From Thermoanaerobaculia bacterium (GTDB taxonomy: Bacteria > Acidobacteriota > Thermoanaerobaculia > UBA5066 > Gp7-AA6): a stretch of DNA of 64,000 bases. Shown here piece after piece: positions 3,206-63,819 of the stretch. The DNA lies in NCBI GenBank assembly GCA_038203955.1, contig JBBRDK010000007.1:299-64298 (forward strand), read 5' to 3'. Numbering within the stretch: the first letter of the stretch is position 1; every line of letters starts with the position of its first letter. Made by a program: the position numbers and the translations under genes. The notes under the pieces are model-generated. The model worked only from the letters and a program-made list of their open reading frames with translations, was not told where the DNA came from and made no database searches.

Positions 3206-3213
3206 GACGAAGA

Positions 3214-3280
3214 GTTCTCAGTAATCAGTTTTCAGTTTTCAGTGGAATCGACTGACGACTGAGAACTGACAACTGAGAAC
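3214..3280. repeat. Inverted pair of heptamer arrays (TCAGTNN x4 / NNACTGA x4) giving a hairpin with 30-nt arms and a 7-nt loop
   Basis: Left arm 3214-3243 gttctcagtaatcagttttcagttttcagt, loop ggaatcg, right arm 3251-3280 actgacgactgagaactgacaactgagaac. Hand pairing gives 25 Watson-Crick pairs, 2 G:U pairs and 3 mismatches, and every non-Watson-Crick position falls at the variable positions of the units. The right arm touches the SBP stop codon (3280-3282). Confidence 0.85.
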
Positions 3281-4386
3281 TACTCGGCCTTCCCGCTGCC
3301 GGGCTCGTACTTCCACGCCTTCTGGCGCTCCGCCGCGTCGGCGAAACGGGTATCGACGTACTCCGAGAACGGGATCTTGCGGTCGAGGACGCGGGTCTCG
3401 ATCATCAGGTCCCGGACCATGTCGAAGTCCGGCTTGCGCGGCGAGAGGCTCGTGTACGTGACGCGGTCGAGCGGCATCGTGAGCGCGTGGCGCAGGAGCG
3501 CGGGGGGCTGACGGTAGTAATAGCGGCCGACGAAATCCGCGGCGTGCTCCCGGTGGGGCTTGCCTTCGTCCAGCCAGAGGCCCGAGCGCGCGATCCCGTC
3601 GACGAGCACCTGGACGGCGTCCGGGCGCGTGTCGATGACGTCCTGCCTCACGACGACGACGCAGGACATGTAATCGGGCCAGTACTCGCGCGCCGGAAAG
3701 AGAATACGGCCGAAGCCGCCGATCTCCGCCTGGGCGGGATACGGCTCGCCCATGGAGAAGGCGTCGATCGCCTTCGCCGCGAGCGCCCCCGGGACGTCGG
3801 GCGGCGCCATCTCGATCATGCGCACGTTCTCGGGCGGGATGCCGTTGGCCTTCAGGGCCTTGAAGACGATGAGGCGTTCGTCGGAGAACCGGCTGGGAAT
3901 CGCGATGATGCGTCCCCGCAGGTCCTTTACGGAGTGGATCGGGCCATTCTTCTGGACGACGACGGCGCTTCCGTACCGATGCCCGAGATAGACGATTTTG
4001 ATCGGCACGCCCTGGGCGCGCAGCGCGATCGCCATCGGAGCCACCATGAATCCCACCTGCATGCGGTTGGAGATCAGCGCCTCCTTGATCTCCGGAAACC
4101 CCTGGAACATGCGGGGAATGAAGAGATTTCCCGCGAGCGAATACCTCGAGATGAAATCCGTCACAGGGCACGCGAGGTGGCAGGTCACCGGGATGTACGC
4201 CACGTTCAGCTTCCGCCGGGAAGGCGGCAGGCGCTGATTCACGATTGAGGACCAGTCGACGTTCAGCGCCATGTGCGCCCCGGTCAACGCGGCGGTCCAG
4301 AGGAGCGCGCCGGCGGCCAGCCGCCGGCCGATGCGGACCGGCCGGCGATCGCGGGTCACCTCAGGAGGCGGCGATGCCGCCGTCAT
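3280..4386 (-). CDS. ABC transporter substrate-binding protein, NMT1/THI5-like (NitT/TauT family)
   Basis: ORF track gives 3280..4404. I prefer ATG 4386 because it makes an ATGA overlap with the permease stop at 4383-4385. Signal/anchor-like AAGALLWTAALTGA followed by an SsuA/TauA-like body. Confidence 0.75.
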   Translation of the reverse strand: MTAASPPPEVTRDRRPVRIGRRLAAGALLWTAALTGAHMALNVDWSSIVNQRLPPSRRKLNVAYIPVTCHLACPVTDFISRYSLAGNLFIPRMFQGFPEIKEALISNRMQVGFMVAPMAIALRAQGVPIKIVYLGHRYGSAVVVQKNGPIHSVKDLRGRIIAIPSRFSDERLIVFKALKANGIPPENVRMIEMAPPDVPGALAAKAIDAFSMGEPYPAQAEIGGFGRILFPAREYWPDYMSCVVVVRQDVIDTRPDAVQVLVDGIARSGLWLDEGKPHREHAADFVGRYYYRQPPALLRHALTMPLDRVTYTSLSPRKPDFDMVRDLMIETRVLDRKIPFSEYVDTRFADAAERQKAWKYEPGSGKAE

Positions 4387-5150
4387 GCCGCGCGGAAGCC
4401 CCACCGGACGGAGCGCAGCCGCTCGACCCGGCGCATCAGAACGTTCAAGCCGACGCCGATCACGCCGATCAGGATCATCGCCGCGACGACGAGGTCATAG
4501 CGCTTCCCCGCGTTGCGCGAGTCGATCACGAGATAGCCGAGGCCGGAGTCCACGGCGATCATCTCGGCGGCGACGACGACGAGCCAGGCGATCCCGAGCG
4601 CGATCCGGAGTCCGGTCAGCACCTGCGGGAGGGCCGCCGGCAGCATCACCCGCCAGAGACGCTCGACCGGCGAGAGGTCGAAGTTGCGCCCGGCCAGCAG
4701 GTACATCGCCGGGATCCCCCGAACGCCGTTCATGGTCGCGACGACGATCGGAAAGAACGACGCTAAGAAGATCAGGAAGATCGTCGCGAAGTTCGAGATG
4801 CCGAAGAGGACGATCGAGACCGGGATCCAGGCGAGCGGGCTGATGGGCCGCAGCAGCTGGATCACCGGATTGACGGCCCGGGCGCCGATGGGCGACCAGC
4901 CGAGAAGGAGTCCGGTCGGGATCCCGAGCGCCAGCGCCAGCCCGTAGCCCGAGGCCACGCGGAAGAGGGAGTCGGCCGCATAGCGGAAGAGGACGCCGCG
5001 GCGCGCGAGCTCGGCGAACCCGGCCGCGACCGCCAGCGGCGAGGGAAAAACCGAAGTCTTCGTCCACCGGACTGCGACGTGCCAGGCGACGAGAGCGAAG
5101 ACCGCCGTCAGAGTCGGCCAGAGGATCCTTTCGAACGAGCGCGACTGCAC
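4383..5150 (-). CDS. ABC transporter permease (NitT/TauT family)
   Basis: 255 aa with multiple TM segments and a conserved loop AGRNFDLSPVERLWRVMLPAALPQ. Confidence 0.85.
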   Translation of the reverse strand: MQSRSFERILWPTLTAVFALVAWHVAVRWTKTSVFPSPLAVAAGFAELARRGVLFRYAADSLFRVASGYGLALALGIPTGLLLGWSPIGARAVNPVIQLLRPISPLAWIPVSIVLFGISNFATIFLIFLASFFPIVVATMNGVRGIPAMYLLAGRNFDLSPVERLWRVMLPAALPQVLTGLRIALGIAWLVVVAAEMIAVDSGLGYLVIDSRNAGKRYDLVVAAMILIGVIGVGLNVLMRRVERLRSVRWGFRAA

Positions 5151-5945: not shown

Positions 5946-6742
5946 GCCGCCTCCGCTTCGACGGGAGTCTGGTAGCCCCAGCTGGCGGCGGGAAGGCGCT
6001 CGAGCCGGCGCATGGCGAGGTCGAGGCAGACGCCGATGGCCCCGATCAGGACCATGCCCGCGACGACGAGGTCATATCGGTTGCCGGCGTTGCGCGCGTC
6101 GATGATCAGGAACCCCAGCCCCGAGTTGACGGCGATCATCTCCGCGGCCACCACGACGAGCCACGCGATTCCGAGGGTCAACCGGAGCCCGACGATCAGC
6201 TGCGGGAGGATCGCCGGGGCCAGAACCTTTCGAGCCAGGTCCACCGGAGAGAGCCCGAAGTTGCGTCCCGCGTTCCAATGCGTCGCGGTGACGCTTCCGA
6301 CCGCGTTCATGGCCGTGAGCGTCAGCGGGAGAATCGAGGCGAGGAAGATGATGAAAATCGCGGCGGGATCTCCCACACCGAACCAGAGTATCGCGATGGG
6401 AATCCAGGCGAGGGGAGAGATCGGCCGCAGCAGCTCGAGCAGAGGCGCGACGGCCATCTCCGCGCGGCGGCGCCAGCCGAGGAAGATCCCGAGAGGGACT
6501 CCGACGGCGACGGCCATCAGGTAACCCCACGTCACGCGGAAAAGCGAAGCGACGACGTGTTTGACGAGAAACCCCTTCTGCGCGAGCTCCGCGATCGCGG
6601 CCGCCACCTTCCACGGCCCCGGAAGAAGCGTATTTCCGGCGAGCGCAATCGCGGCGCTCCAGAGCACGACGAGCAGCACTAGCCCGGAGCACGAGACGAG
6701 GAGGCGTCCTCCGGCCGATGTCCGCGCGCGTCCTGGATCCAT
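5942..6742 (-). CDS. ABC transporter permease, second copy
   Basis: The track ORF runs to 6955, but its first ~30 residues are the reverse translation of tRNA-Asp. The first plausible start is ATG 6742 (MDPGRARTS...). Paralogous to 4383..5150 (AGRNFGLSPVDLARKVLAPAILPQ). ATGA overlap with the ATPase start. Confidence 0.8.
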   Translation of the reverse strand: MDPGRARTSAGGRLLVSCSGLVLLVVLWSAAIALAGNTLLPGPWKVAAAIAELAQKGFLVKHVVASLFRVTWGYLMAVAVGVPLGIFLGWRRRAEMAVAPLLELLRPISPLAWIPIAILWFGVGDPAAIFIIFLASILPLTLTAMNAVGSVTATHWNAGRNFGLSPVDLARKVLAPAILPQLIVGLRLTLGIAWLVVVAAEMIAVNSGLGFLIIDARNAGNRYDLVVAGMVLIGAIGVCLDLAMRRLERLPAASWGYQTPVEAEAA

Positions 6743-10041: not shown

Positions 10042-10338
10042 TCAGTCGATGTGGCCGTGCCTCTTCCAGAATTTCCTCACGTAGGCGTCGCGGTCGCCGG
10101 GGCGAAGCCTGAGGAACTCGACGAGCTCGCGTCTCGTCACGAGCGGTCTCGCGAGGTCGAGCCAGTCGCGGTACTTCTTCGGAAGGACGAGGATCGCGTC
10201 TCGGATCTCCTCGTTCGACCAGGCGGGCGCGGGCTCCGGCGGCTCGTCGGGCGCCGCGGACGGAGCTTCGCCGGGGGACGTCCGCGAATCTTCGGCGGAC
10301 AGCGCCCGCTCATCCTTCGCGGCCGAGATGAAGGCAGG
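10042..10338 (-). other. 98-codon coding-like frame with no ATG/GTG/TTG start, in frame with and directly after the TAG stop of the Rieske gene
   Basis: Hand translation after TAG(10339-10341): PAFISAAKDERALSAEDSRTSPGEAPSAAPDEPPEPAPAWSNEEIRDAILVLPKKYRDWLDLARPLVTRRELVEFLRLRPGDRDAYVRKFWKRHGHID, ending at TGA (10042-10044). Third codon positions are G/C-rich like the real genes. The only canonical start is a GTG, which would give a 32-aa product. Confidence 0.5.
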
Positions 10339-11239
10339 CTACGACCCGGAGCGGGCGAGCCGCAACTCGATCTGGCCGTCGCGGACCCGGGTCTGGAAAC
10401 GGGGCTGCGGGAATGCGGACGGTCCGGCCACGACGTCGCCGGTCACGAGCTCGAAGGTCGATCCGTGCCAGGGGCAGACGACGCAGTCGCCTTCCAGCCT
10501 GCCCTCGGAAAGCGGTCCGCCCAGATGCGCGCAGGTTTCGGCGAGCGCGTGGAGCCGGCCGCCGCGGCGGACGAGGAGCAGCGGCGTGCCTTTGTAGAGA
10601 ACGCGTTTCAGTTCGCCCTCCAAAAGCTCGCCGTCGGAAAGGACCGCGACGAAATCCTCCGGCATCTCGCGGCCCGCGGTGTGGTCGACGCCAATCTGCT
10701 CGTGCGAGACGAGCTCGCCGCCCAGGAATCCGGCGGCGGCCACGAGAAAAAGGCCGCCGAGTGCGAGTCCGCGGCCCGTCCCCCGGCGCCCGCGGGAACG
10801 CGAGAAGAGAGACGCCGCAAACAGGAGGGTCCCGGTGGAATTGAGCAAGGCGTGGGCGGCGCCGATCCGGCGAGGCCGTCCGTCCGTCTCCGACCAGTCC
10901 GTCAGGCCCGTGACGGCCGAGCCGATGGCGCCGGCGAGTCCCAGGGCGACCGTGGCGTCCGCCGCGCGGTGAAGCCCGCGCCGATCCCGTCCGCCGTCGA
11001 GGGCGTCGAGCAGCACGGTCGCGGTCCAGGCGCCGATCGGGATGTCGGTCAGAACAGGATGCAGGGGATGGCCGAGCCATGTGCCGTGCAGCGCGTTCTT
11101 CACGACCCGCCGGGCGGGCCCGAGGCCGTCAAAAAACCCGCGGACGGCGGGCTGGAGCGCGTCCGAAACGCCGTCGAGCCAGGTCTGGTCGCCGACCGCG
11201 CGGTACACATCTTTGAGGATCAAGGCCACCCCCGTGTTT
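10339..11239 (-). CDS. Membrane DUF2231-like domain fused to a Rieske [2Fe-2S] domain
   Basis: The track start (11523) overlaps the kinase gene. The first starts after the kinase stop are GTG 11239 and TTG 11233. TM-rich N-half (HPLHPVLTDIPIGAW) followed by Rieske motifs CAHLGGPL and CPWHGSTF. Confidence 0.75.
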
Positions 11240-11308
11240 TGGAAACCCCATGCGAAAGCGGAACAGGAGCCGGAGTGCGCCCCTCCCTCACGTCGAAGCT
11301 TTTGCGCA

Positions 11309-12589
11309 TCACGCGGCCGGCAACTTGCGGGGAACCGTGAAGCTGAATGTGCTTCCCTCGCCCTCCCGGCTCTCCGCCCGGATCGCTCCGCCGTGCGCTT
11401 CCACGATGGACCTGGAAATGTAGAGGCCGAGACCCATGCCTCGGCGATCATTCTTTCCGACCTGCCAGAACCGCTCGAAAATCGCCTCCAGCATGCCGGC
11501 TGGTATCCCGGAGCCGGTGTCACTGACCCAGACGCGGATCCCGTCCTCGGAGCGTTCGGCCCCGACCCGGATTTTGCCGCCCGGAGAGGTGAACTTCATC
11601 GCGTTCGCGACGAGGTTGGCGAGCACCTGGAGCATCCGATCGTGATCGAACTCCGTTACGAGCGGGCCCTCGGCGATCTCCGTCCGCAGGGACAGGCCCT
11701 TCGCGGCCGCGGAGGCGTGAAAAGTATCCAGGGCCTCGGCGATCAGCGCCCCCCAATCGCCGGAAACCGGAGCAATGGCGAGCTTTCCGGCATCGAGAGT
11801 CGCCACATCCATCAGGTCTCCGATAAGGCGGTTCATGCGCGCCGCATACCGTTGAATGCGCGTGGTCTGACCGAGAGTCTGCTGACGATCGTTCCCGGTC
11901 TCGGTGCGCGACAGTTGCTCCGCGCTCATCACGATTCCATTGAGGAGATTTCGCAGGTCATGGCTGACGATCCCCAGGAAATCGTCACGATGCGAGAGCG
12001 CCTCGTCCGAACGAGTCCGCTCGGTCAGCAGGGAGCGGTCGGTCTTATCTCTCTCGAACGGCGCCATCATCGACAGGGCGCGGACACTCTCCTCGCGTTC
12101 GCGCTCGATTCTCGCATCCGCGGACGCCCGTTCATCGCGCAGAGCCTCATCCTCGATCGCGCGTCCTTCGGCGAGGGCCGCGATGGTAGCGGCCCGGGGA
12201 AGCGCTTCCTCCAACAGCTGGTCCGCCCTGTCGCGCGCCGCGCTCAGGACGTCGTCCGCTTGCTTTCGCGCGCGGTGAATTACCGCGTTGGCATCCAGTT
12301 CGACGGCCGCCTGCCGCTGCGCCAGCGCCTGGTCCGCTCTTTCGCGCTCGGTCCGAAGGCTCTCGTCCGTCTTTTCGCGCACGAGTTCGGGGATCTTGCC
12401 GTTCAGGGCCATACCCGCACTGTAGCGCCTCGCCTCGATGGAAAGGGTGCTGACTTCTTCACGATTCGCCCTCGCAGAGCGGAGAGCTTCGAAAGTGGTA
12501 CAGCCGGTGGGACGTCCCTGAATGGTTGGGGCCCTTCGATAGAGCTCCAAGATGTCGGAAGATTCGTTGAAGCACGGGATTTTCACCAA
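11309..12589 (-). CDS. Sensor histidine kinase with a soluble coiled-coil N-terminal half
   Basis: H-box FLGIVSHDLRNLLNG and ATPase boxes LANLVANAMKFT, VSDTGSGIP, GMGLGLYISRSIV. The N-half carries two copies of KTDxSLxTERxRxDxAL. The start could be the internal Met at residue 60. Confidence 0.85.
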   Translation of the reverse strand: MVKIPCFNESSDILELYRRAPTIQGRPTGCTTFEALRSARANREEVSTLSIEARRYSAGMALNGKIPELVREKTDESLRTERERADQALAQRQAAVELDANAVIHRARKQADDVLSAARDRADQLLEEALPRAATIAALAEGRAIEDEALRDERASADARIEREREESVRALSMMAPFERDKTDRSLLTERTRSDEALSHRDDFLGIVSHDLRNLLNGIVMSAEQLSRTETGNDRQQTLGQTTRIQRYAARMNRLIGDLMDVATLDAGKLAIAPVSGDWGALIAEALDTFHASAAAKGLSLRTEIAEGPLVTEFDHDRMLQVLANLVANAMKFTSPGGKIRVGAERSEDGIRVWVSDTGSGIPAGMLEAIFERFWQVGKNDRRGMGLGLYISRSIVEAHGGAIRAESREGEGSTFSFTVPRKLPAA

Positions 12590-14252: not shown

Positions 14253-14879
14253 GTGCGGAGCCGTACAAGCGTATTCTGGCGGGACCGAGTGAAGCCGCAC
14301 TTCGCGCGCGCGTTGAGAGGTTCGGACCGCCCCTCCCGGCGGGATGGGAGCGGAAACGCGCTCTGCCGGGAATGCGGCAGTTCCGTGCGCCGGCCCCGGC
14401 GCACTTTCTGCTCGAAGGCCTGCGTCGACGCCCTGCTCGTCCGCACGTCGCCGTCCGCCGCACGGGACCGCGTGTTCGAGCGCGACCGCGGCCGCTGCGC
14501 GCGATGCGGACTCGATACCGAGGCCCTCAAGAGGAAGCTCGCTGCGATGCGTCGCAGGAATCCGGTTCCCGAAGCCCTCGAGGAGGCCCGCCGCCTTTCG
14601 ACGGGGTTCGAGCGCGCGGTCTTTCTTCGCGCGCGCCGTCCCTGGATCGCCATCCGCCGCGCTCTCTGGGAGGCGGATCACGTCGTGCCGGTCGTCGAGG
14701 GCGGCGGCGGATGCGGCCTGGATAACCTGCGCACGCTGTGCATTCCCTGTCACCACGCGGAGACGCGCGATCTCGCGCGCCGCCGCGCGGCCGCGAGGCG
14801 GGAGGCGGGAAGGACCGAGGGGCCGGGAGCCGAGCGACCAACGGGAGCGAGACGGCCGCGGTACTCCGCGGTCAACTAG
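14253..14879 (+). CDS. HNH endonuclease with an N-terminal CxxC...FCSxxC zinc ribbon
   Basis: RDRGRCARCG...WEADHVVPVVEGGGG...LDNLRTLCIPCHHAET. The last ~30 codons and the stop are encoded by the GAGGCGG units plus the 56-nt element. The exact start is uncertain. Confidence 0.75.
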   Translation: MRSRTSVFWRDRVKPHFARALRGSDRPSRRDGSGNALCRECGSSVRRPRRTFCSKACVDALLVRTSPSAARDRVFERDRGRCARCGLDTEALKRKLAAMRRRNPVPEALEEARRLSTGFERAVFLRARRPWIAIRRALWEADHVVPVVEGGGGCGLDNLRTLCIPCHHAETRDLARRRAAARREAGRTEGPGAERPTGARRPRYSAVN

Positions 14880-14880
14880 A
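14825..14880 (+). repeat. Conserved 56-nt element, copy 1
   Basis: gggagccgagcgaccaacgggagcgagacggccgcggtactccgcggtcaactaga. Differs at 1-2 positions from the copies at 50537-50592 and 58723-58778. Internal 8-bp hairpin GGCCGCGG-tact-CCGCGGTC. Preceded by GAGGCGG x2 (14795-14808). Confidence 0.9.
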
Positions 14881-14973
14881 ACGGTAATCGGTGCCGGGAG
14901 GTTCGCCGTCCGTCTCCCTCCCGCCCAGCGCCTCTTGAGCCCCTGATACCCTTGCGCGGCCGTCCCGGCACGC

Positions 14974-50505: not shown

Positions 50506-50536
50506 GGGACACGAGGGCGAGGCGGGAGGAGGGGCC

Positions 50537-50592
50537 GGGAGCCGAGCGACTAACGGGAGCGAGACGGCCGCGGTACTCCGCGGTCAACTAGA
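50537..50592 (+). repeat. Conserved 56-nt element, copy 2
   Basis: gggagccgagcgactaacgggagcgagacggccgcggtactccgcggtcaactaga, followed by one GGGAATC unit. Confidence 0.9.
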
Positions 50593-50675
50593 TCGGGAAT
50601 CGAAAGAAGGGGGACGGCTGACGGCTCACTCTCCCCCTCTCCGCGGGCGCGCAGGAGGGGGGAGTTCCCGGGTTC

Positions 50676-50707
50676 GACGCTCAACGCATAACGCTCAACG
50701 CTTAACC
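50676..50707. repeat. Heptamer array GACGCTC AACGCAT AACGCTC AACGCTT AACC
   Basis: Contains the stop codon (50695-50697) and the last 4 codons of the sortilin-like gene. Confidence 0.9.
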
Positions 50708-53700: not shown

Positions 53701-53772
53701 CGCCGCCGATCCCGCGGCGGCGAGGCAGGCGAGGGCGATGAGTCCCGCGGCGAAGCGACGCGTACCGGTCAC
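50695..53772 (-). CDS. Sortilin/VPS10-like BNR (Asp-box) repeat protein, second paralog
   Basis: 1025 aa with a signal peptide. Asp-boxes TTDAGRTWV, STDGGKSWK, STDGGHNWE, STDGGTTWK, SDDAGATWR, STDGGRTFT, TRDGGNNWS, TADGGKSWK, TRDGGASWQ. Confidence 0.85.
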   Translation of the reverse strand: MTGTRRFAAGLIALACLAAAGSAAPLPDPRIFSEMRWRCIGPFRGGRTVGAAGIPSQPNVFFMGVNNGGVWKTTDAGRTWVPIFEDQPTQSIGAIALAPSDPDVLYVGSGEGLQRPDLSTGDGIYKSTDGGKSWKHLGLRDGQQIGALLVDPGNPNRVFAAVLGHPYGPNPERGVFRSTDGGHNWERVLYKDENTGAIALAFDPKNPQVVYADLWAARQAPWEIGASFQGPGSGLYKSTDGGTTWKPLTSGLPTIAEGLGRIGIAVAPSDPSRLYAQVDADAGHGGTYRSDDAGATWRRVNAENRIWGRGGDFAEVKVDPKNPDVVYAANTSTYRSTDGGRTFTAIKGAPGGDDYHTIWINPDHPEILFLAADQGATISVNGGKTWSSWYNQPTAQFYHVITDNQFPYRVYGGQQESGSAGVSSRSDDGSIHFGNWHPVGVEEYGYVAPDPLDPNILYGGKISRHDVRTGDTTDISPSPIRGKYRFVRTMPVLFSPLDPHLLYLGANVLFATRDGGNNWSVLSPDLTRAAWEMPASVGVFAPMDPEKGKHRGVIYTIAPSPKEAGRLWVGTDDGLIHVTADGGKSWKDVTPKALTAWSKVSLMEASHSDPAVAYAAVNRFRLDDLRPHIYRTRDGGASWQEIVRGIPENEVVNAVREDPERRGLLFAGTERGVYVSFDDGDEWQSVRNNLPATSVRDLVVHGDDLVVGTHGRSFWILDDITPLRQMAAEAVVPDVHLFRPQVATRVKRSQWPDTPLPPEEPAGQNPPDGAIVNYVLKSRPAQPVVLEILDSAGKLVRKYTSADRPEPVDPELNVPTYWLRRPAILSAEPGMHRFVWDLHYLPPDVLEHEYPISAVPGDTPRHPVGPAVLAGAYTVRLTAGGRAVTAPLTVRMDPRVKTPPEGLADRFRLATAISAALARDLAALTEVKAARARLKPAGEAEARKGSPSTYEADLLALEGSGGGRRGANRDDLSGLNGKLASLYAVVEGSDTAPTTQAVAAWKELSESLEKTLAHWGEVKKNAVKR

Positions 53773-53790
53773 GGTTCCTCCGTCAGGGAA

Positions 53791-53860
53791 GTTGAGCGTT
53801 GAGCGTTTAGCGTTGAGCGTTCAAGGGGAGAGTTGAGAGTTCAGAGTTGAGAGTCAAGTC
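53791..53860. repeat. Ten-unit (70-nt) heptamer array spanning two unit families
   Basis: GTTGAGC GTTGAGC GTTTAGC GTTGAGC GTTCAAG GGGAGAG TTGAGAG TTCAGAG TTGAGAG TCAAGTC in one unbroken register. Confidence 0.9.
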
Positions 53861-53895
53861 GGGACTGAGAAGAGGGCCAAACCAGGGGCTGCTGA

Positions 53896-54789
53896 TCAGG
53901 ACTTTCCGCGTTCGAGGCTGGGGCGGTCCCATCGGCCGGTTTGCGCGGCGGCGTCGTACGTGGATTGAAAGAAGGCGAGGGCGTCGGCCTCGGGATCCGG
54001 GGACGCGGCGACGGCCTCATAAGGCAGCAGGTATTCGCCGAGTGTCGTGTCGAAGCGCGCCGCCGCCGGCCGGACGGGAAGCTCCCGGAAGCCCTTCGGC
54101 TCGGGCGCGGCGTAGGAGTAGAAGACGGGTTCCTCGAGGCCCGGCCCTCCCGGCCAGAACCCGGCGCTCGACACTTCATGGGAGTAGGCCTCGCGCGTGA
54201 TCGCGTCCGCTCCCGCGCGCGGGGGGGCGATGCGGCCCGAGAACCTCGTCACGCAGAGATCGAAGCTGCCCCAGAAGAAGTGAACGGGGCTGCACTTCCC
54301 GAGGTATCCGGAGCGGAACCTCTGGAGCACGCGTTCGCTGCTCGAGAGGATCCGGCGCAGCCGCTCGACCGGTTCCCGGTCGTACGCCGCGTGGTGATGG
54401 TCCTCTTCGAACCGGACCGGATTGGGGATTTCGACCGGCATGGTCCGGATCGGAACGGAGATGCCGAGGGAGTCCAGGGCTCCCACCAGCTCCTCGTGGA
54501 ATTGCGAGACCGAGCGCGGCGAAAGGGGGAGCTCGCGGCGCGCCCGCCCTGACGTCGTGACCGTAAGGCGGTGGTCCACGAAGTCGAAGGCGATCTCGAA
54601 GCTGCCCGCCGGATCCGGAATCGCCCCCGTGGTCAGCCCCCTCGGCGTGACGAGGAAGGCGGCATTCCACCAGTGGTTCACGAGAGGAGTCCGCGCGAGC
54701 TTGATCTTCCCGGGGATCTGCATCCACCGGTGCAGGGTCTCGTACGTGTCCCGCCAGGAGGCGAGCGGGAGGGAAGGCCATTGAGTCAT
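53896..54789 (-). CDS. Conserved hypothetical protein, DUF5996-like
   Basis: 297 aa. WPSLPLASWRDTYETLHRWMQIPGKIKL...HFFWGSFDL. The family name is from memory and moderately certain. Confidence 0.55.
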   Translation of the reverse strand: MTQWPSLPLASWRDTYETLHRWMQIPGKIKLARTPLVNHWWNAAFLVTPRGLTTGAIPDPAGSFEIAFDFVDHRLTVTTSGRARRELPLSPRSVSQFHEELVGALDSLGISVPIRTMPVEIPNPVRFEEDHHHAAYDREPVERLRRILSSSERVLQRFRSGYLGKCSPVHFFWGSFDLCVTRFSGRIAPPRAGADAITREAYSHEVSSAGFWPGGPGLEEPVFYSYAAPEPKGFRELPVRPAAARFDTTLGEYLLPYEAVAASPDPEADALAFFQSTYDAAAQTGRWDRPSLERGKS

Positions 54790-54793
54790 TGGG

Positions 54794-54842
54794 AAATCAG
54801 TTGTCAGTTATCAGTCGTCAGTTATCAGTCATCAGTTCGGAG
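54794..54842. repeat. Seven-unit heptamer array AAATCAG TTGTCAG TTATCAG TCGTCAG TTATCAG TCATCAG TTCGGAG
   Basis: In register. Inverted relative to 54912-54943. Confidence 0.9.
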
Positions 54843-54874
54843 TCCTCGCAGGCGCATTCTCCCTGTTGGGCGAG

Positions 54875-54903
54875 AAAAAACAAAAGGGGCGCCGAAGCGC
54901 CCC
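54875..54903 (-). terminator. Rho-independent terminator of the lipoprotein gene
   Basis: The minus strand reads GGGGCGC-TTCG-GCGCCCC followed by TTTTGTTTTTT. Confidence 0.75.
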
Positions 54904-54911
54904 TGTCCGAA

Positions 54912-54943
54912 GACTGAAAACTGAGAACTGAGAACTGACGACT
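54912..54943. repeat. Heptamer array (ga)CTGAAAA CTGAGAA CTGAGAA CTGACGA CT
   Basis: Ends 4 nt from the stop codon at 54948-54950. Confidence 0.9.
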
Positions 54944-54947
54944 CCCT

Positions 54948-55832
54948 TCACATCGCCGCGGGCAGCCGCAGTGGCTGCTCGAGCGTGAAGGCGGTCGAGC
55001 GGCCCGCTTCGATCGAAAAGTCAAGGTCGCCTCCGAGAGCCGCCACGCCGGTTCCCGCCGCGGCGCCGGCCGCCGCGCCTTCGAGGGTGCCCTTCGTGTT
55101 GCCGCCGAGCACCTGTCCCAGAATCGCGCCGACCGCCGCGCCGCCTGCGATGTACCCGGCGTTGCGCTTGGTGTGGGTGTCCCCGACGCGTGAATACGCC
55201 GACGTCGCGATCGCGATCGTCCGGCCGTTCACGTCGAGGTCGGTCAGGCGGAACCGCAGCTCCGCAGGCCGCGCGAGCTTGCCGGAGTCGACGACATGCT
55301 CGACCTTTCCGTGCACGCGGGTCCCCGAAGGCGCCACGACCGTGTCGTCCTCGGCCAGGAGGTCGTCGAGAAGCTCTCCGGAATAGACCTCGCCCTCCCG
55401 CGCGCCCGCCGTCGAGATCGTCTTGTCGAATCTCGCCCTCAGGATCGTGCCGGCCGGGACCTCGTGCTCCCGCCGCCCCGCCGGCGCCCGACGCGCGTCG
55501 GAGGCGCCCGTCGCCTCTCCAGAGCGGGCGACTCCCGTTGCGGAGCCGGTCTTCGCCGTCGTCGACCGCGTGCGACGGCGGACGGCATTTCGCTGCGACG
55601 CTTCGACCGGGTCGACTGTCACGATTGTCGTCGTGGTCGTCGTCGTGGTCTGCCGCACTCCATCGGGGAGCGCCGGCGCGGACCCCGGAGCCGCGCCGGC
55701 AGCCGCCGAAGCGTCGGCCGGTACGGGTGTGGCTGCCGCGGTAGAGGTCTCGCCGGTTTTCTGACATCCCGCCGCAAACGCGAGGCCCAGGACGACGCCA
55801 GCGGCCGTGATCTGAAATTTTCTCGAAATCAT
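54948..55832 (-). CDS. Lipoprotein with a poly-Thr linker and a C-terminal glycine-zipper region
   Basis: Start at ATG 55832 with GGAGG upstream. Lipobox LAFAAGC. TTTTTTTT run and YIAGGAAVGAILGQVLGG. Confidence 0.6.
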   Translation of the reverse strand: MISRKFQITAAGVVLGLAFAAGCQKTGETSTAAATPVPADASAAAGAAPGSAPALPDGVRQTTTTTTTTIVTVDPVEASQRNAVRRRTRSTTAKTGSATGVARSGEATGASDARRAPAGRREHEVPAGTILRARFDKTISTAGAREGEVYSGELLDDLLAEDDTVVAPSGTRVHGKVEHVVDSGKLARPAELRFRLTDLDVNGRTIAIATSAYSRVGDTHTKRNAGYIAGGAAVGAILGQVLGGNTKGTLEGAAAGAAAGTGVAALGGDLDFSIEAGRSTAFTLEQPLRLPAAM

Positions 55833-55980
55833 GTGACCTCCTGAATGACTGAGATGGTTTCTTCCTCGACAGAGCAAGCGGCATGCCTTAATCAGCTGCC
55901 GCGCCAGGGCGGAACCCAGACGACTGAAGAGAAAAACGCGGCCTCGCGGCCGCGCTTTTCTTCTCCGAAACGAGAAGGGC

Positions 55981-58693: not shown

Positions 58694-58864
58694 AGGCGGC
58701 AGGCGGACCGAAGCCGGGAATCGGGAGCCGAGCGACCAATGGGAGCGAGACGGCCGCGGTACTCCGCGGTCAACTAGATCGGGAATCGGGAATCGGGAAT
58801 CGAGGACGGGAAACGGGAAACGAAAAAGGCGGGTTTCTGGCTGATAGCTGATAGCCGATAGCTA
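58694..58864. repeat. Composite repeat locus: AGGCGGN x2, GGGAATC, the 56-nt element, GGGAATC x3, GGGAAAC x2, GCTGATA x3
   Basis: Read directly. Unit positions: 58694-58707, 58716-58722, 58723-58778, 58781-58801, 58808-58821, 58840-58864. Confidence 0.9.
58723..58778 (+). repeat. Conserved 56-nt element, copy 3
   Basis: gggagccgagcgaccaatgggagcgagacggccgcggtactccgcggtcaactaga. Confidence 0.9.
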
Positions 58865-58865
58865 C

Positions 58866-59816
58866 TCACCGCCTCCCGCCTCCCGTCTCTTCGGCCAGCA
58901 CGATCCTCGGCTTCAGGATCGACACGCCGCCCTGGCCGATCGGGGAGACCTGCGCGAGGGCGACCATTTCGTCCCCGGGTCCGATAAGAGTCACCCAGGC
59001 CCCGTCTGCCGAGGCCAGGCCGCGCGCCGGGATCGACTGTCCCTTGCGGACCTTCCACGCCTCGAGGGAGGCGAGCCGAAGCCGCTCGAAAGGAAACGGG
59101 ACGCGCGAGAGGGGAAGGGCGTGCGGCCGCGAGAGTCTCTCCGCGGCGGGCAGCGATTCGAAGAGCTCGAGCGCGACCGCCTCTTCCACGCGGAAGTCGC
59201 CGATCCGCGTTCGCCGCAGGCTCTCGAGGTGCGCGCCGCAGCCGAGCGATTCGCCGATCGCGTGCGCGATCGACCGGATGTAGGTGCCGGAAGAGCAGGA
59301 GATCGAGAACTGGATGCGTCCGCCGGCCGGCGGCGAGAGGACGAGCTCCGACACGCGCACCTTCTTGGGGAGCACCGGGACTTCTTCGCCCCGCCGGGCC
59401 ATCTCGTAGAACTTGCGGCCCTTGATCTTCTTCGCCGAGTAAGGAGGCGGAGACTGCAGAAACTCCCCCCGAAACGGTGAGGCGGACGCCTCGATCTCCT
59501 CCGCGCCGATGCCGGCCGCGTCTTTCTCCGCGCCGAGGGGCTCGCCCTCCCGGTCGTACGTCGCCGTCGCGAGGCCGAGCCGGATGGTGCCCTCGTAGGA
59601 CTTGTCGAGCAGGGTGAAAAATCCCTGGAGCCGGGCGGCGCCCCCGGCGCACAGGAGGAGCAATCCCGTCGCCATGGGATCGAGCGTCCCGCTGTGGCCG
59701 ATGCGGGGGACCCCCGTCGCGCGGCGCGCGCGCTCGACGACGTCGTGGGAGGTCAGGCCGCCGGGCTTGTCGATCAGGATGAGGAAGCCGCGCGCGAGAG
59801 AATCGGGCCGCGTCAC
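58866..59816 (-). CDS. truB: tRNA pseudouridine(55) synthase
   Basis: GTG 59816 overlaps the rbfA stop (GTGA). KPGGLTSHDVV...GHSGTLDPMATGLL. The last codons (ETGGGRR) are CCGCCTC-type units. Confidence 0.9.
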   Translation of the reverse strand: MTRPDSLARGFLILIDKPGGLTSHDVVERARRATGVPRIGHSGTLDPMATGLLLLCAGGAARLQGFFTLLDKSYEGTIRLGLATATYDREGEPLGAEKDAAGIGAEEIEASASPFRGEFLQSPPPYSAKKIKGRKFYEMARRGEEVPVLPKKVRVSELVLSPPAGGRIQFSISCSSGTYIRSIAHAIGESLGCGAHLESLRRTRIGDFRVEEAVALELFESLPAAERLSRPHALPLSRVPFPFERLRLASLEAWKVRKGQSIPARGLASADGAWVTLIGPGDEMVALAQVSPIGQGGVSILKPRIVLAEETGGGRR

Positions 59817-60217
59817 TCCGTTGCGCCCTCGTCGGGCGCGGTCTCCGCGCTCTCGTCCTCGTCCTGCTGGCGCGGGACGACCTTCGCGAGGAGCTCCTCG
59901 ATGCGCGCTCCCTGCTCGATCGAGCGGTCGGCGAAGAAGTGAAGCTCGGGCGCGAAGCGCAGGACGCACCGCCGTCCGACTTCGCGCCGCAGGAATCCCG
60001 AAGCCCGGTCGAGGGCGGCGAGCGCGGCGTCGCGCTCGGCGTCGCCCCCGAGGGCCGAGAAGTACACGCGGGCCGACCGGAGGTCCGGCGGCATCTCGAC
60101 CTCGGTGATCGTGACGTTGCGCAATTCCGGATCGTGCGCCTCGAGAACCACCAGGCGGGAGATCTCCGCCCGAACGAGATCGGAGACCCTCTGGGCGCGT
60201 CGGGATTCTTTCTTCAT
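59813..60217 (-). CDS. rbfA: Ribosome-binding factor A
   Basis: Start at the internal ATG 60217: MKKESRRAQRVSDLVRAEISRLV...VTITEVEMPPDLRSARVYF. Confidence 0.85.
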   Translation of the reverse strand: MKKESRRAQRVSDLVRAEISRLVVLEAHDPELRNVTITEVEMPPDLRSARVYFSALGGDAERDAALAALDRASGFLRREVGRRCVLRFAPELHFFADRSIEQGARIEELLAKVVPRQQDEDESAETAPDEGATE

Positions 60218-60223
60218 GAAGAC

Positions 60224-60251
60224 GGCAGGCGGAAGGCAGCAGGAAGGAGCG
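60224..60251. repeat. Purine-rich period-7 units GGCAGGC GGAAGGC AGCAGGA AGGAGCG
   Basis: Inverted in composition relative to 60367-60394. Confidence 0.5.
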
Positions 60252-60316
60252 CGCACACCGCGCGGCTCCGGGCAGGAGGCCGCCCGTCCGATAGCGGCCG
60301 CTCCGCCCGCTTCAGA

Positions 60317-60346
60317 GTCCGCCGGAAGGGAAGGCGTCCGGCGGAC
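60317..60346. other. 10-bp perfect hairpin GTCCGCCGGA-(10 nt)-TCCGGCGGAC
   Basis: Hand-paired. Lies between the DUF503 and rbfA genes. Confidence 0.6.
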
Positions 60347-60366
60347 AGATGCCGGCCGAGGCGAGA

Positions 60367-60394
60367 CCGCCTCCCGCCTCCCGCCTCCCGCCTC
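60367..60394. repeat. (CCGCCTC)x3 + CCGCCCC array
   Basis: 28 nt. Ends 9 nt from the stop of the DUF503 gene. Confidence 0.9.
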
Positions 60395-60403
60395 CCGCCC
60401 CGT

Positions 60404-60691: not shown

Positions 60692-60714
60692 GGGCTGTCA
60701 GCCTGCGGCTGCCA

Positions 60715-60819
60715 GGTTCTCAGTCGTCAGTTTTCAGTCTTCAGTCTCGGGCCGGGAGAAGACGTCGAAACGCAGCCTCGCGGTCGAACTGAGAACTGAG
60801 GACTGACAACTGAAAACTC
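60715..60819. repeat. Inverted heptamer-array pair (TCAG-type 60717-60746 and CTGA-type 60787-60819) with a ~40-nt loop
   Basis: TTCTCAG TCGTCAG TTTTCAG TCTTCAG ... CTGAGAA CTGAGGA CTGACAA CTGAAAA. The right array ends at the nt before the infB stop codon. Confidence 0.9.
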
Positions 60820-63819
60820 TCACCCATTCATCACGCCGGCGACCTTTTCGACCTGGTACGCCTCGATGATGTCGCCCACCTTCACGTCCTGGTACTTCTC
60901 GAGGCCGATGCCGCACTCGAACCCCTGTTTGACCTCCGAGATGTCGTCCTTGAACCGCCGCAGGGATCCGATCTTGCCTTCGTAGATCACCCGGTTGTCG
61001 CGGAGGAGGCGCACCTTGGAGGTTCGGCTGATGGAGCCTTCGGTCACGTAGCAGCCCGCGACGATCCCGAACTTCGGCACCTTGAAGGTGTTGCGGACCT
61101 CGGCCCGGCCCTGCGCGACTTCTTTCAGGGTCGGATCGAGCAGGCCCTCCATGGCCAGCTTGATCTCGTCGGTGACGTTGTAGATGACGGTGTGCAGACG
61201 GATGTCCACCCCGGCCTTCTCGGCCTCGGTTTCCGCCTTCTTTTCCGGGCGGACGTTGAAGCCGACGATGATGGCCTTGGACGCCGAGGCGAGCAGCACG
61301 TCGTTGATGTTGATCGCGCCGACGCCGGCGTGGATGACGGACACCTTGACCTTCTCGTTGGAGAGGTTCGAGAGCGACTGGTTCAACACCTCGACCGACC
61401 CGGCGACGTCCGCCTTCAGCACGATCGAGAGGTCCTTGACGCGGCCTTCCTGGATCTTGCTGAAGAGCTGGTCGAGCGAGAACTTCGACGAGGCCGCCAT
61501 CACCTTCTCGCGATCCTTGGCTTGGCGGAACGCCACGACGGACCGCGCCTTCGCCTCGTCCTCGACTCCCTGGAAGGTGTCGCCCGCCTGAGGGAGGTCC
61601 TCGAAACCGGTGACCTCCACCGGCGTCGCGGGTCCGGCGATCTCGATCTTGACGCCGCGGTCGTCCTGCATCGAGCGAACGCGCCCGAACACGGATCCGG
61701 CGAAGAAGACGTCGCCCACCTTCAGGTTGCCGGCCTGCACGAGGACGGTCGCGAGGTTCCCGCGGCCGATCTCGCGGCGGGCCTCGAGCACCACGCCCCG
61801 GGCCTCGTCCACGACGGGCGCCTTCAGCTCCTGAAGCTCCGCGACGAGAAGGATGAGCTCGAGCAGGTGATCGATACCCTCCTTCTTCAGGGCGGAGATC
61901 TCCGCCGAGGGAACGTCCCCGCCCCAGGATTCCAGCAGCACGCCGCGGTCGGCGAGCTCTTTCTTCACGCGATCGGGGTTCGCGTTGTTCTTGTCGATTT
62001 TGTTGATGGCGACGACGATCGGGACCTTGGCCGCGCGGGCGTGGTCGATGGCCTCGATGGTCTGCGGCATGACGCCGTCGTCCGCCGCGACGACGAGCAC
62101 GACGATGTCGGTCGCCTTCGCGCCGCGCGCGCGCATCGAGGTGAACGCCTCGTGGCCGGGCGTGTCGAGGAAAACGATCGGCTTGCCGTTGGTCTCGACG
62201 CGATACGCGCCGATGTGCTGCGTGATTCCGCCCGCCTCGCCCGCGGCCACGTTGGCCTGGCGGATGGCGTCCAAGAGCGAGGTCTTCCCGTGGTCGACGT
62301 GCCCCATGACGGTGACGACCGGCGCACGAGTGACCCTCGCCGCTTCCGCGGCCTCCGCCTCGCCCGGACGCGACTGCGAGTCCGCGGCGCGAGAGAGCTC
62401 CAGCTCTTCCTCGAACGAGACGACCGCCGCCTCGGCCCCGACCTCCTTGGCGATCTGGATCGCGGTCTGCGCGTCGAGAGGCTGATTGACGGTCGCCATG
62501 ATCCCGCGCTGCATGAGCAGGCGGAGGATGTCCTTCGCGAGAACGCCGAGCTTCTCGGAGAGCTCCTTGACCGTGACGCCTTCCGACAGAAAGACGGGGC
62601 CGGTGGGCAGGGGCTTCTTGAACTCGAGCAGTTTGCCGGAATCGTGCGTGCGCGTTTCCTTCGCCGCCCGCCGCAGGGCGGACTTCGAGATCGGCCTCGC
62701 CGTCGGGACCTCTTCGCCGTCGGTCTTTTCGATCAGCGGCAGGGAGATGTCCGAGTACGTGTCTTCCTGGTAGGTGCCCACGAACTCGCGAAGATCGACT
62801 TCGTCGGCAACGGTGATCTTCGGCTTGGCTCCGCCTTTCTTGGCGTTCTTCTTCGCGTCTTCCTTGTCATCCTTCTTGCGCTTCGGCGCGGCTCGCTCCG
62901 CCGTGGCCGGCGGCGCGGTTCCGCGTCCGGCCGCGGGACCGGTCGGCCGCCCGAGCGCGGGCGCTCCCGGCCTGCCCATCGGCGCGCCGACGCGCCCGGG
63001 TCCTCCGAGCGGACGCGCGCCCGGCCCGCCCGGAGTGGGCCGGTACACGGACGGCCCTGCGGGACCCGACGGACCCATCGGCCGGCCCGGAGTCCCCGAG
63101 GCCGGACCCATCGGCCGGCTGATGGGACCTCCGGAGGGTCCCATCGGGCGGCTCGGCGCCCCCGCCGCCGGGCCCATCGGACGGCCGGCCGCGCCCGGCG
63201 GCGCCAGCGAGGGTCCTGAAGGACGCCCGGGGGCGACGGGACGCGCAGGCACGACGGGACGAGGAGGCAGGATGATCTTGCGGGGGATAGCCCTGGCCGC
63301 CGGGGCTCCCGCGGCCGAGACGGGGGCGACGCCCGGCGCCGGCGGAGCGACCGCCGCCGTGCCCGGGGCGGGCGCGGCGGGAGGGGGAGCGGCGGGAGCG
63401 GCTGCCGGCGGTGCGGCGGCGGGCGGCGAGGTCGCGGAAACGGCTTCCGGCTCCGGCTCGGCGTCGATGACGGCGGTGCGGGCCGGCTCCGCCGGCACGG
63501 CCGCCCGCGCGGCGCGCGGCTCCGGCTTCGGGCGGGGAGCGTCGACCGCCGGCTCCTCGGCGGCCCCGGGGGGCTTCTCGATGATCTTGATGCGGGAGAG
63601 CGCGCTCTTCTGCGGCCGCGGCGCGCGCGACTCGGTGTCGCGCACGATCAGCTGCTTGGGCGCGTGGGTCTTTCCCTGGAGGATCGCCAGCACGGTCGAT
63701 TCATCGAGCGCCGCCTGCGGAGACTTCACGTCGACGCCGATCGACTGCAGGAGGAAGAGAACCTCCTTGCTGCCGATCCCCATCTGCGCGGCGAGCTCCT
63801 CGACTCGGATCTTTCCCAT
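60820..63819 (-). CDS. infB: Translation initiation factor IF-2
   Basis: 999 aa. G-domain [26 protein letters not shown]. Pro/Gly-rich N-terminal region with repeated RPMGP motifs. Confidence 0.95.

Follow-up and report, generated by a model that had tools for sequence, protein, structure and literature searches.

The present work concerns a 64-kb stretch of DNA from a Thermoanaerobaculia bacterium (contig JBBRDK010000007.1, positions 299 to 64,298; this whole stretch is hereafter called the window), in which tandem arrays of 7-nt units, or heptads, occupy many of the spacers between genes, with a strand polarity fixed relative to the gene ends. These arrays belong without serious doubt to an already described class, the intergenic heptanucleotide tandem repeats of the long simple sequence repeat (SSR) or short tandemly repeated repetitive (STRR) type: they consist of exact 7-nt head-to-tail units, are dispersed with a non-coding bias, exceed the length expected by chance and vary in copy number between relatives. 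Since exact GGGAATC and TAACTGA units occur in the window and since a literature search found no earlier report on heptanucleotide repeats in Acidobacteria, including Thermoanaerobaculia, the finding is a new lineage of a known, unexplained kind of repeat. A first-pass annotation made from the sequence alone had presented the arrays as a repeat class without described counterpart and had itself named a match to a described repeat family as grounds for giving up this claim; intergenic heptanucleotide repeats are documented in several groups, and the claim to novelty is therefore refuted. Our preferred reading, to which we assign a probability of about 0.45, is that the arrays are built by slippage and persist as gene-boundary modules of mRNAs. 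Their origin by slippage is the likely part of this reading and a function at the RNA level the least certain one.

Tandem Repeats Finder (TRF) returned period-7 arrays at all 14 loci proposed by the first-pass annotation (2.6 to 9.4 copies, 76-100% matches), and the sequence printed in 7-nt register shows the units that it had listed. A period-k run was defined as at least 18 of 21 consecutive bases equal to the base k nt downstream. As that annotation had suggested, coding DNA, non-coding DNA and dinucleotide-preserving shuffles were compared for the window: lag-7 runs cover 630 nt compared to 0 nt in 20 shuffles, lag-14 runs cover 373 nt, and the remaining lags from 2 to 15 cover 0 nt each. 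Almost all bases of the lag-7 runs (624 of 630, 99%) are non-coding on a gene map drawn from frame plots of G+C at third codon positions (GC3), open reading frames (ORFs) and Pfam domains, which leaves 4,397 nt (6.9%) of the window as non-coding. With a relaxed threshold, period-7 runs take 24% of the non-coding bases versus 0.14% of the coding ones, an enrichment of about 170-fold. Arrays are present in 15 of the 33 spacers of at least 40 nt, including 10 of 21 between co-directional genes, four of six between convergent genes and one of six between divergent genes.

Arrays of three to ten units fill permissive spacers from stop codon to start codon, and their outer edges mostly lie 0-17 nt from the adjoining gene. 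Some stop codons even lie inside the first unit, either as the TGA of TTGAG (43506-43508, upstream of the array at 43511-43544) or as a TAG at the position of CAG (38828-38830 and 3280-3282). The arrays had been said to avoid gene interiors and to touch only the 3′ tips of genes; the avoidance is borne out by the 99% figure and 3′ tips are indeed touched (the array at 58869-58889 is within truB, the one at 38893-38922 within the tail of ORF 38848-40092), but arrays also reach start codons. Likewise, all 14 loci do hold arrays, but not over their whole length: four of the long ones (50478-50707, 54794-54943, 58694-58864 and 60224-60394) are period-7 only at their ends and consist of two terminal arrays around a centre of 60-175 nt of unique sequence. 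Four arrays were absent from the initial list, at 34329-34348, 36701-36724, 58869-58889 and, with only two units, 14795-14810. That the arrays were created by assembly or polishing is practically inconceivable, given that arrays with this architecture are seen in relatives assembled independently, in other phyla and in finished genomes already published, and that they are degenerate instead of perfect and respect gene boundaries. The arrays and the features directly associated with them are the following (z, hairpin folding scores):

3206-3279: spacer from the stop of an NMT1-like gene to the start of an amino-acid permease gene, both on the minus strand
3213-3243: left arm, AGTTNTC, 4.4 copies, G/T-rich on the plus strand (TRF and register view), hairpin with 3251-3281 (z -6.0/-5.0)
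3251-3281: right arm, NNACTGA, 4.4 copies, A/C-rich on the plus strand, overlapping the TAG stop of the minus-strand gene 3280-4404
25777-25806: AGTTNTC, 4.3 copies, in the convergent spacer 25777-25876, beginning right after the TAG stop of a small plus-strand ORF
25830-25872: TCAACTC, 6.1 copies, 100% matches, 4 nt short of the stop of the minus-strand BNR/sortilin gene 25877-29128
31443-31480: AGTTGAG, 5.4 copies, in the convergent spacer 31438-31525, 5 nt past the stop of the plus-strand gene ~29200-31437
34329-34348: CCGCCTC, 2.9 copies, adjoining the stop of the minus-strand gene 34363-36588
36701-36724: weak array, CGCCTTC, 3.4 copies, abutting the stop of the minus-strand gene 36725-37789
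37831-37859: left arm, GCGTYRA units, in the divergent spacer 37790-37995 (z -1.9/-2.4)
37915-37979: right arm in the same divergent spacer, ACTCTCA grading into AACGCTS, 9.3 copies
38829-38867: AGTTNTC, 5.6 copies, the TAG stop of the Rce1-like gene (end 38830) being an in-register variant unit
38893-38922: CGTTTCC (GGGAAAC on the minus strand), 4.3 copies, 100% matches, in the 3′ tail of the minus-strand ORF 38848-40092
43511-43544: left arm, GTTGAGC/GTCGAGC, in the spacer 43509-43644 between two plus-strand genes (z -3.3/-4.8)
43598-43627: right arm, ACGCTNA, 4.3 copies, ending 17 nt before the ATG at 43645
47081-47129: left arm, AGTTGAC to AGTCGAG, 7 copies, in the radC-metG spacer, 3 nt past the radC stop (z -3.4/-5.3)
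47194-47255: right arm, AACGCTC grading into AACTCTC, in the radC-metG spacer, 5 nt before the metG start
49241-49291: unpaired array, AGCTNTC grading into AGTTNTS, in the metG-tatD spacer from the base after the metG TAG stop
50474-50501: left arm, GTTGAGC, 4 copies, in the convergent spacer 50467-50694 (z -5.4/-4.9)
50677-50706: right arm, ACGCTCA/ACGCATA, 4.3 copies, overlapping the stop of the minus-strand BNR gene 50695-53772
53790-53858: CGTTGAG then AGTTGAG, 9.4 copies, in the spacer 53773-53895 between two minus-strand genes; in mRNA sense, CTCAAC units before the start of the BNR gene
54796-54837: left arm, TCAGTNN, 6 copies, in the spacer 54790-54947, the reverse complement containing TAACTGA (z -8.2/-6.0)
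54885-54904, minus strand: intrinsic terminator with an 8-bp stem including 7 GC pairs, then TTTGTTTTTT, located between the two arms in their unique centre
54913-54938: right arm, NNACTGA, 3.7 copies, 9 nt from the stop of the minus-strand ORF 54948-55700
58694-58709: AGGCGGN, 2 copies, in the truB-rpsO spacer, left of a dispersed element of ~68 nt
58778-58819: GGGAATC, 3 copies, then GGGAAAC, 2 copies, in the truB-rpsO spacer; GGGAATC is a unit of the Xanthomonas repeat (PMC4692102)
58840-58863: GCTGATA, 3.4 copies, 2 nt from the truB stop
58869-58889: CCGCCTC, 3 copies, within the last codons of truB
60224-60245: degenerate left arm, GGCAGGC/GGAAGGC, in the DUF503-rbfA spacer (z -2.8/-3.2)
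60367-60399: CCGCCTC, 4.7 copies, 100% matches, 4 nt from the DUF503 stop; in mRNA sense, GGGAGGC right after the stop
60716-60747: left arm, TCAGTNN, 4 copies, in the infB-DUF503 spacer (z -5.0/-6.4)
60786-60818: right arm, NNACTGA, 4.7 copies, in the infB-DUF503 spacer, 1 nt from the infB stop

The polarity of the arrays follows a simple rule, met by 24 of the 26 arrays of the window (p 1e-5): the plus strand is G/T-rich beside the left gene and A/C-rich beside the right gene. Read in mRNA sense and whatever the gene orientation, the units placed directly after stop codons are G/U-rich (UCAGUNN, GUUGAGN, GGGAGGC) and those placed before start codons are their complements (NNACUGA, NCUCAAC, CCGCCUC). 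For example, 7-24 nt separate the ends of NNACTGA arrays, read in mRNA sense, from the starts at 3205, 54789 and 60691; their units are degenerate and not exact TAACTGA. The polarity is also kept by unpaired arrays and by pairs of different families (25777-25876, 31438-31525, 38829-38922) and is therefore not merely a property of hairpins; the arrays at 25777-25806 and 25830-25872 belong to different families, so that they form no hairpin (z -0.8). Convergent spacers, which offer no start codon that could select for it, show this polarity as well. Beyond the window, pairs and orientations were counted on all the loci collected, for neighbouring period-7 arrays at most 150 nt apart. Inverted neighbours outnumber direct ones (97 versus 34, p 3e-8), and CAGT on the left with ACTG on the right outnumbers the reverse order (64 versus 3, p 7e-16) in unrelated contigs including those of phages. 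The viral loci were picked for TCAGT arrays with both strands searched, so the search does not bias this count of orientations. The STRR units named by Mazel et al. in 1990 reportedly contain CAGT. In the other unit families, the left arm is the more G/T-rich one in 14 cases versus 3, and a universal G/T-rich-left rule must be rejected: the rule holds for the window and for CAGT units, but contigs such as L002, L016 and L265 are clear exceptions with the reverse order of G/T-rich and A/C-rich arms.

Read on their G/T-rich strand, 95 units from 21 arrays yield one consensus, A-G-T-T-N-W-S, with A at position 1 in 84% of the units, G at position 2 in 100%, T at position 3 in 83% and T at position 4 in 69%, any base at position 5 (0.14 bits), A or T at position 6 and C or G at position 7. 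Departures from this consensus are not uniform along the unit (p 1e-16); the register was set on positions 1-3, whose conservation is thus partly built in, but the contrast among positions 5, 6 and 7 is not. Units hold a core of 4-5 nt with two or three variable positions. Because the 95 units align to a single consensus, TCAGTNN, TTGAGAG, TTGAGCG and AGCTNTC are one superfamily, in agreement with the initial remarks that families grade into each other and that the arrays are one evolving system, and GGGAATC/GGGAAAC and AGGCGGN/GGGAGGC are families apart from it. In total, at least five different cores coexist in the window, and dozens across relatives. In many arrays, a period of 14 or 21 outscores 7 in TRF, revealing higher-order repeats, and variants are commonly shared by neighbouring units, as would be expected if blocks of one and two units were duplicated. 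A role as insulator carrying stop codons in all frames was rejected: in the TTGAG family UGA is found on the G/U-rich strand, the ACTGA family has it on the A/C-rich one, and the GGGAATC and AGGCGG families have none.

Relatives show how changeable these spacers are. The gene orders infB...pnp and radC-metG-tatD are common to the window and to two relatives, L001 and L002. In the infB-DUF503 spacer, L001 carries a degenerate TCAGT...ACTGA pair like that of the window, whereas the units of L002 are AGGCGGN; the DUF503-rbfA spacer of L002 has GCCGCCT units ahead of the start, and that of L001 measures only 25 nt and is free of arrays. The radC-metG and metG-tatD spacers of L001 are short and devoid of arrays. 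A metagenomic relative, L201 (72% identity for MetG), harbors a different unit family in these two spacers, with GGATTTC/GGAATGC right after the stops and AATCCGA before the tatD start, the polarity being kept. By contrast with L201, the radC-metG spacer is array-free in L202, L203 and L206, as is the region after metG in L202 and L203; the metagenome scan for metG relatives retrieved none closer than 75% identity. Since the orthologous spacers of L001, L002 and L201-L206 differ in unit number or unit family or lack arrays, richness in arrays is a trait of particular genomes, and independent gains take place at the same permissive spacers, with polarity kept and units changing.

Arrays of this kind extend well beyond these relatives. 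Among 80 loci encoding polynucleotide phosphorylase (PNPase) in named genomes, period-7 arrays were found in L016, another metagenome-assembled genome (MAG) of Acidobacteriota that has ACTCTCA and AGCTGTC units as in the window, in two Megasphaera (L051 and L052) and in a Phycisphaerales MAG (L067), and several of them form inverted pairs. A pattern of four TCAGTNN units matched at least 120 stretches of viral contigs, with 31-70% G+C among the matches listed. Three contigs from IMG/VR (L127, L140 and L158) encode portal and Mu F-like, capsid and tail proteins and are therefore real phages; they carry up to 7-8 matches to the four-unit TCAGT pattern in 7-9 kb. In L140, TCAGT arrays separate the long ORFs and form inverted pairs with this same polarity, a surprising arrangement given how compact phage genomes are. 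Different units (CCACTAA, GTTCCAG, GAATGCA, TGAGTTN, GGACNTY and CAGAACR), mostly in inverted pairs, were observed in Megasphaera L051 and L052, in Phycisphaerales L067 and in four soil metagenome contigs (L211, L212, L244 and L265).

Eight of the 14 loci are inverted pairs of arrays matching at the family level, which fold as long imperfect hairpins (z -1.9 to -8.2): 3206-3279, 37790-37985, 43509-43644, 47078-47260, 50467-50710, 54790-54947, 60224-60403 and 60692-60819. The arms of pairs are 10-170 nt apart, with unique DNA between them. Rfam, searched at permissive thresholds, returned no family for the arrays but only the tRNA-Asp and two chance matches to microRNA precursors (3205-3289, E 0.13-0.18, scores far under the gathering thresholds). 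The first-pass annotation had proposed a punctuation system, a 3′-UTR or docking array, or a terminator. This range does cover the hypotheses still alive, but the terminator lacks general support: terminator-like sites are not enriched (15 versus 10.6 +/- 3.8 in shuffles), the arrays themselves show no GC-rich stem followed by a U-tract, and only one array centre holds a strong intrinsic terminator (54885-54904, minus strand).

The reading of the arrays as gene-boundary modules of mRNAs is based on (i) the filling of spacers from stop to start, (ii) the polarity found in all gene arrangements, (iii) the matching of arm families, (iv) the polycistronic contexts of the arrays, within the conserved infB-DUF503-rbfA-truB-rpsO-pnp operon and in between the structural genes of phages, and (v) the function already proposed for STRRs. 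According to this reading, arrays would arise and be resized, 7 and 14 nt at a time, through slippage during replication or through unequal exchange, as suggested by the higher-order periodicity and by the differences between orthologous spacers, and they would be purged from coding DNA since 7 is not a multiple of 3 and any change would shift the frame. In the transcript, the A/C-rich tract would be an unstructured leader ahead of the next gene, poor in start codons and in Shine-Dalgarno-like sequence, and the G/U-rich tract that follows the previous stop could pair with it, forming an adjustable stem, punctuated by mismatches, that would bring stop and start side by side. Such a stem-loop may stabilise the upstream message or couple the translation of neighbouring cistrons.

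Several points weigh against a selected role in the transcript. Transcription of the arrays of the window is assumed. Close relatives have spacers of 4-25 nt at the same positions, and arrays are therefore dispensable. The metG and DUF503 genes also lack Shine-Dalgarno sequences in array-free relatives, so that a replacement of Shine-Dalgarno sites by arrays was rejected. The six loci other than the eight hairpins fold no better than shuffles, and many arrays are unpaired. At the hairpin loci, the sense and antisense strands fold about equally well, which leaves no signature of selection on one particular RNA. The complementarity of the arms is equal in every register shifted by 7 nt; the variable positions thus show no covariation and provide no base-by-base evidence for a selected structure. 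The lengths of the two arms are uncorrelated (rho -0.14 over all the collected loci). Furthermore, if the terminator at 54885-54904 is efficient, the two arms of 54790-54947 would mostly lie on separate transcripts.

Many of these points are shared by the main rival, a doubtful but serious one, according to which the arrays are a neutral or selfish by-product: seven-nucleotide slippage intermediates would escape repair, arrays would grow wherever selection permits, up to the neighbouring stop or start, without any role of their own, and the polarity would be simply the least harmful orientation. The gain, loss and replacement of arrays among relatives at 70-85% protein identity would follow naturally, whether as short array-free spacers (L202, L203 and L206) or as different families in the same spacers (L201 compared to the window), as would the entry of arrays into gene tips, where they supply the stop codon. 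Independent arm lengths without covariation between arms and the 14-nt higher-order periodicity, typical of slippage, also fit, and essential signals such as the terminator at 54885-54904 would survive as unique centres. However, a by-product does not readily explain why variation is so strongly position-specific (p 1e-16), why the CAGT and GGGAATC cores recur across phyla, why inverted neighbours exceed direct ones by 97 to 34, why polarity is kept at 64:3 and 24:2, even in convergent spacers without start codon, or why arrays are present in compact phage genomes.

Among the known systems, the closest counterpart is the (GGGANTN)n repeat of Xanthomonas described by Rehm et al. in 2015 in two genomes, with 183-186 repeats in each, 89-93% of them intergenic, positions 1-4 and 6 conserved, and 70-75 convergent inverted pairs per genome (PMC4692102). 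Downstream of ORFs its G-rich strand coincides with the coding strand, and upstream of them with the non-coding one; divergent spacers are under-used, most repeats are transcribed, the unit number varies among related species and no function was found (PMC4692102). The window resembles this system in its fixed and free positions, convergent pairs, G-rich polarity at gene ends, few divergent spacers and exact GGGAATC units (58778-58819), but GGGAATC is minor here, AGTTNWS is dominant, at least five cores coexist and the host belongs to Acidobacteriota and not to Gammaproteobacteria. Formation of G-quadruplexes as in Xanthomonas cannot apply to most units of the window: GGG tracts occur only at 58778-58819, 38893-38922 and 60367-60399, and the dominant AGTTNWS units have none. 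TAACTGA repeats of Beggiatoaceae, cyanobacteria and Bacteroidetes are mostly in forward orientation just upstream of starts, and a translational role has been proposed for them (MacGregor 2015, PMC4679880); those of Maribeggiatoa are near-exact, with 169 direct sets versus one indirect set (PMC4679880). They share with our arrays the ACTGA core, the intergenic location, the ACUGA strand before starts and the reverse one after the stop, and in some genomes the mixing with other heptamers, but NNACTGA in the window has two free leading positions and its arrays usually form inverted pairs. Overall, the polarity of the window agrees both with the G-rich-strand finding of Rehm et al. and with the forward TAACTGA before starts of MacGregor.

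Cyanobacterial STRRs are 7-bp repeats that form hairpins between genes such as hupS and hupL, and the roles suggested for them are in the stability of transcripts or the coupling of translation (PMC2670836). Tandem, dispersed, intergenic and hairpin-capable 7-bp units are common to both, but STRRs belong to heterocystous cyanobacteria of about 40% G+C, unlike the 68% G+C acidobacterial chromosome analysed here. STRRs in the strict sense were therefore set aside, the PNPase of the window being 82-83% identical to those of Thermoanaerobaculia/Acidobacteriota MAGs. The survey of 5-11 nt long SSRs by Mrazek et al. (2007) reportedly found heptanucleotides to be the commonest, with a sporadic phylogenetic distribution, and proposed polymerase slippage; this survey reportedly deals with abundance only, not with inverted pairing, polarity or the filling of spacers from gene to gene.

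Heptads phased strictly every 7 nt with an invariant core and free positions could also be docking sites for a protein reading the 4-5-nt core, either on DNA, like the omega protein, or on RNA, like S1, cold-shock or CsrA-type proteins as envisaged by MacGregor. There are precedents for heptad operators: the ribbon-helix-helix omega protein binds contiguous 7-bp heptads in parS of pSM19035, with direct and convergent arrangements favoured (PMC9499535), and a preprint on Nostoc reports that deletion of heptamers affects reporter expression and postulates an unidentified heptamer-binding factor. The preference of our arrays for convergent over divergent arrangements would also suit such a protein. 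We nevertheless consider docking quite unlikely. Omega recognizes one defined plasmid heptad, whereas at least five chromosomal cores coexist in the window and dozens across relatives; the unit family of one orthologous spacer differs between close relatives; arms lie 10-170 nt apart, split by unique DNA, unlike the contiguous omega operators; and no candidate reader gene was seen among the ~50 ORFs of the window. As to CsrA, the GGA-containing units GGGAATC and GGGAGGC do resemble its sites.

Other classes of repeats were compared and rejected. The arrays are not CRISPR, as already stated by the first-pass annotation, being made of contiguous 7-nt units without spacers instead of repeats of ~24-48 nt separated by unique spacers of similar length. 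It was also right that they are not single palindromes of the repetitive extragenic palindromic (REP) type. REPs, bacterial interspersed mosaic elements (BIMEs) and hairpin-forming REP doublets (REPINs) are likewise extragenic, hairpin-forming, found within operons and proposed as mRNA stabilisers, but they are conserved imperfect palindromes of ~35 nt mobilised by REP-associated tyrosine transposases (RAYTs), whereas the arms in the window are tandem heptads that differ from locus to locus, and no RAYT gene was found among the ~50 ORFs. Attachment sites of integron cassettes (attC) have the core consensus RYYYAAC at the 5′ end and GTTRRRY at the 3′ end and are imperfect inverted repeats between a stop and the next gene. 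GTTGAGC/GCTCAAC (43511-43544/43598-43627 and 50474-50501/50677-50706) fit this consensus, probably by coincidence: attC sites are single and in the reverse order to the arms of the window, which form arrays, no integrase is present and the flanking genes are housekeeping ones. Contingency loci for phase variation do not correspond either, the flanking genes being housekeeping or diverse (infB, rbfA, truB, rpsO, metG, tatD, transporters).

A dispersed element of ~68 nt was found on the plus strand at 14824-14891, 50536-50602 and 58715-58790, in copies 95-97% identical, with a partial inverted copy at 34272-34315. Its core, CGGGAGCCGAGCGACCAAYGGGAGCGAGACGGCCGCGGTACTCCGCGGTCAACTAGA, contains an 8-bp GC hairpin, and AGGCGGN heptads border the element on its left side, GGGAATC heptads on its right side. 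Neither a match in Rfam nor a copy in the loci collected from relatives was found, and from its sequence it seems to be a mobile or converted element of recent origin, separate from the heptad arrays. One of its copies overlaps the 3′ end of ORF 14253-14879 (plus strand), which encodes an HNH endonuclease domain (E 3.6e-6) and lies directly upstream of acrB. The location of this element between heptads at three loci and the inverted arms of fixed polarity might evoke a miniature mobile element, similar to miniature transposable elements with inverted repeats (MITEs) or REPINs, whose terminal inverted repeats would be the heptad arrays. This is very improbable: the centres differ at every other locus and are unrelated apart from the ~68-nt element, arm sequence and length differ at each locus, no target-site duplications were seen, and Pfam scans of the ~50 ORFs revealed no transposase or RAYT gene. 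MITEs were rejected on the same basis, and the initial observation that no transposase lies nearby was confirmed.

The arrays could also result from the biology of palindromes at the DNA level, either as quasi-palindromes on which the processing of hairpins or cruciforms and recombinational repair have acted, tolerating only those arms in which the G/T-rich strand has its 3′ end at the centre, or by 3′-end addition at breaks, akin to head-to-head telomere fusions. Polarity is indeed set relative to the spacer centre independently of gene orientation, both strands fold equally, arm lengths are independent, and telomere-like units such as TAGGGAT and AAGGGTG occur elsewhere. This explanation is very unlikely all the same, as unpaired arrays follow the same polarity rule and no enzyme for such an addition was seen in the window; to our knowledge, no enzyme adds repeats to 3′ ends in this way. 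Moreover, arrays abut genes and the unique DNA is central, the opposite of the layout predicted by growth from a central break, which specifically disfavours break healing or telomere-like addition.

The window itself is a piece of an ordinary chromosome, with 65-74% G+C along its length and 68% overall. Besides the operon infB, DUF503, rbfA, truB, rpsO and pnp, it carries radC, metG, tatD, an AcrB-type efflux system, transporters, kinases, two BNR/sortilin-like proteins and one tRNA-Asp; Pfam scans of its ~50 ORFs detected no transposase, integrase or Cas gene. Its PNPase shares 82-83% identity with the enzymes of two Thermoanaerobaculia/Acidobacteriota MAGs, compared to ~60-65% for other members of the class, and the host chromosome is that of a member of Thermoanaerobaculia (Acidobacteriota). 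The longest truB ORF (58866-59969) overlaps the rbfA ORF (59813-60256) by 157 nt (59813-59969) in a different frame and its TruB_N domain begins only at residue 82; the true start of truB is therefore probably internal. In the Rieske/DUF2231 frame at 10042-11523 (minus strand), high GC3 runs on past an in-frame stop near 10339, which may point to two genes, to a pseudogene or to an error in the sequence. Two ABC permease genes share 77% DNA identity across 247 nt (4394-4640 versus 5971-6217), and the BNR/sortilin-like genes 25877-29128 and 50695-53772 are paralogous and encode proteins of more than 1,000 aa. Coding tandem repeats are present near the 5′ end of the first of these BNR genes (28917-29031, period of 24/48 nt) and in the N-terminal region of infB (63066-63197, period of 33 nt); their periods are all multiples of three, unlike those of the intergenic heptads. 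In L002 (12211-12338), pnp is directly followed by a convergent zincin-tatD-metG-radC block, whereas 5.5 kb (50467-55980) separate pnp from the tatD-metG-radC block in the window, with the BNR/sortilin gene, a DUF5996 gene and ORF 54948-55700; three spacers, within this segment and at its left edge, carry arrays (50467-50694, 53773-53895 and 54790-54947) and the one on the pnp side (55701-55980) does not.

Heptanucleotide arrays have been noted since 1990 and surveyed in 2007 and 2015. The window is an unusually dense case, with about a quarter of its non-coding bases in arrays. It is conceivable, although unlikely, that a single gene-boundary system, and not mere slippage, crosses phyla and writes or selects G/T-rich heptads after stops and their complements before starts, through a machinery or a transcript constraint shared by Acidobacteriota, Xanthomonas, Beggiatoaceae, Bacteroidetes, cyanobacteria and their phages, with CAGT...ACTG (64:3) as its signature. 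If so, the 35-year-old question of the role of STRR-type repeats would receive one general answer. If polarity is a general constraint on transcripts or on the repair of palindromes, it would matter for the design of operons and for the reading of intergenic DNA in metagenomes. If the arrays are merely tolerated products of slippage, they would still mark a lineage-specific mutational regime and call for caution in short-read assembly. The filling of spacers from stop to start, the strict polarity and the independent gains of different families provide precise targets for functional study. Taken together, the polarity rule, its generality, including in phages, and these independent gains make the old question of these repeats more directly testable.

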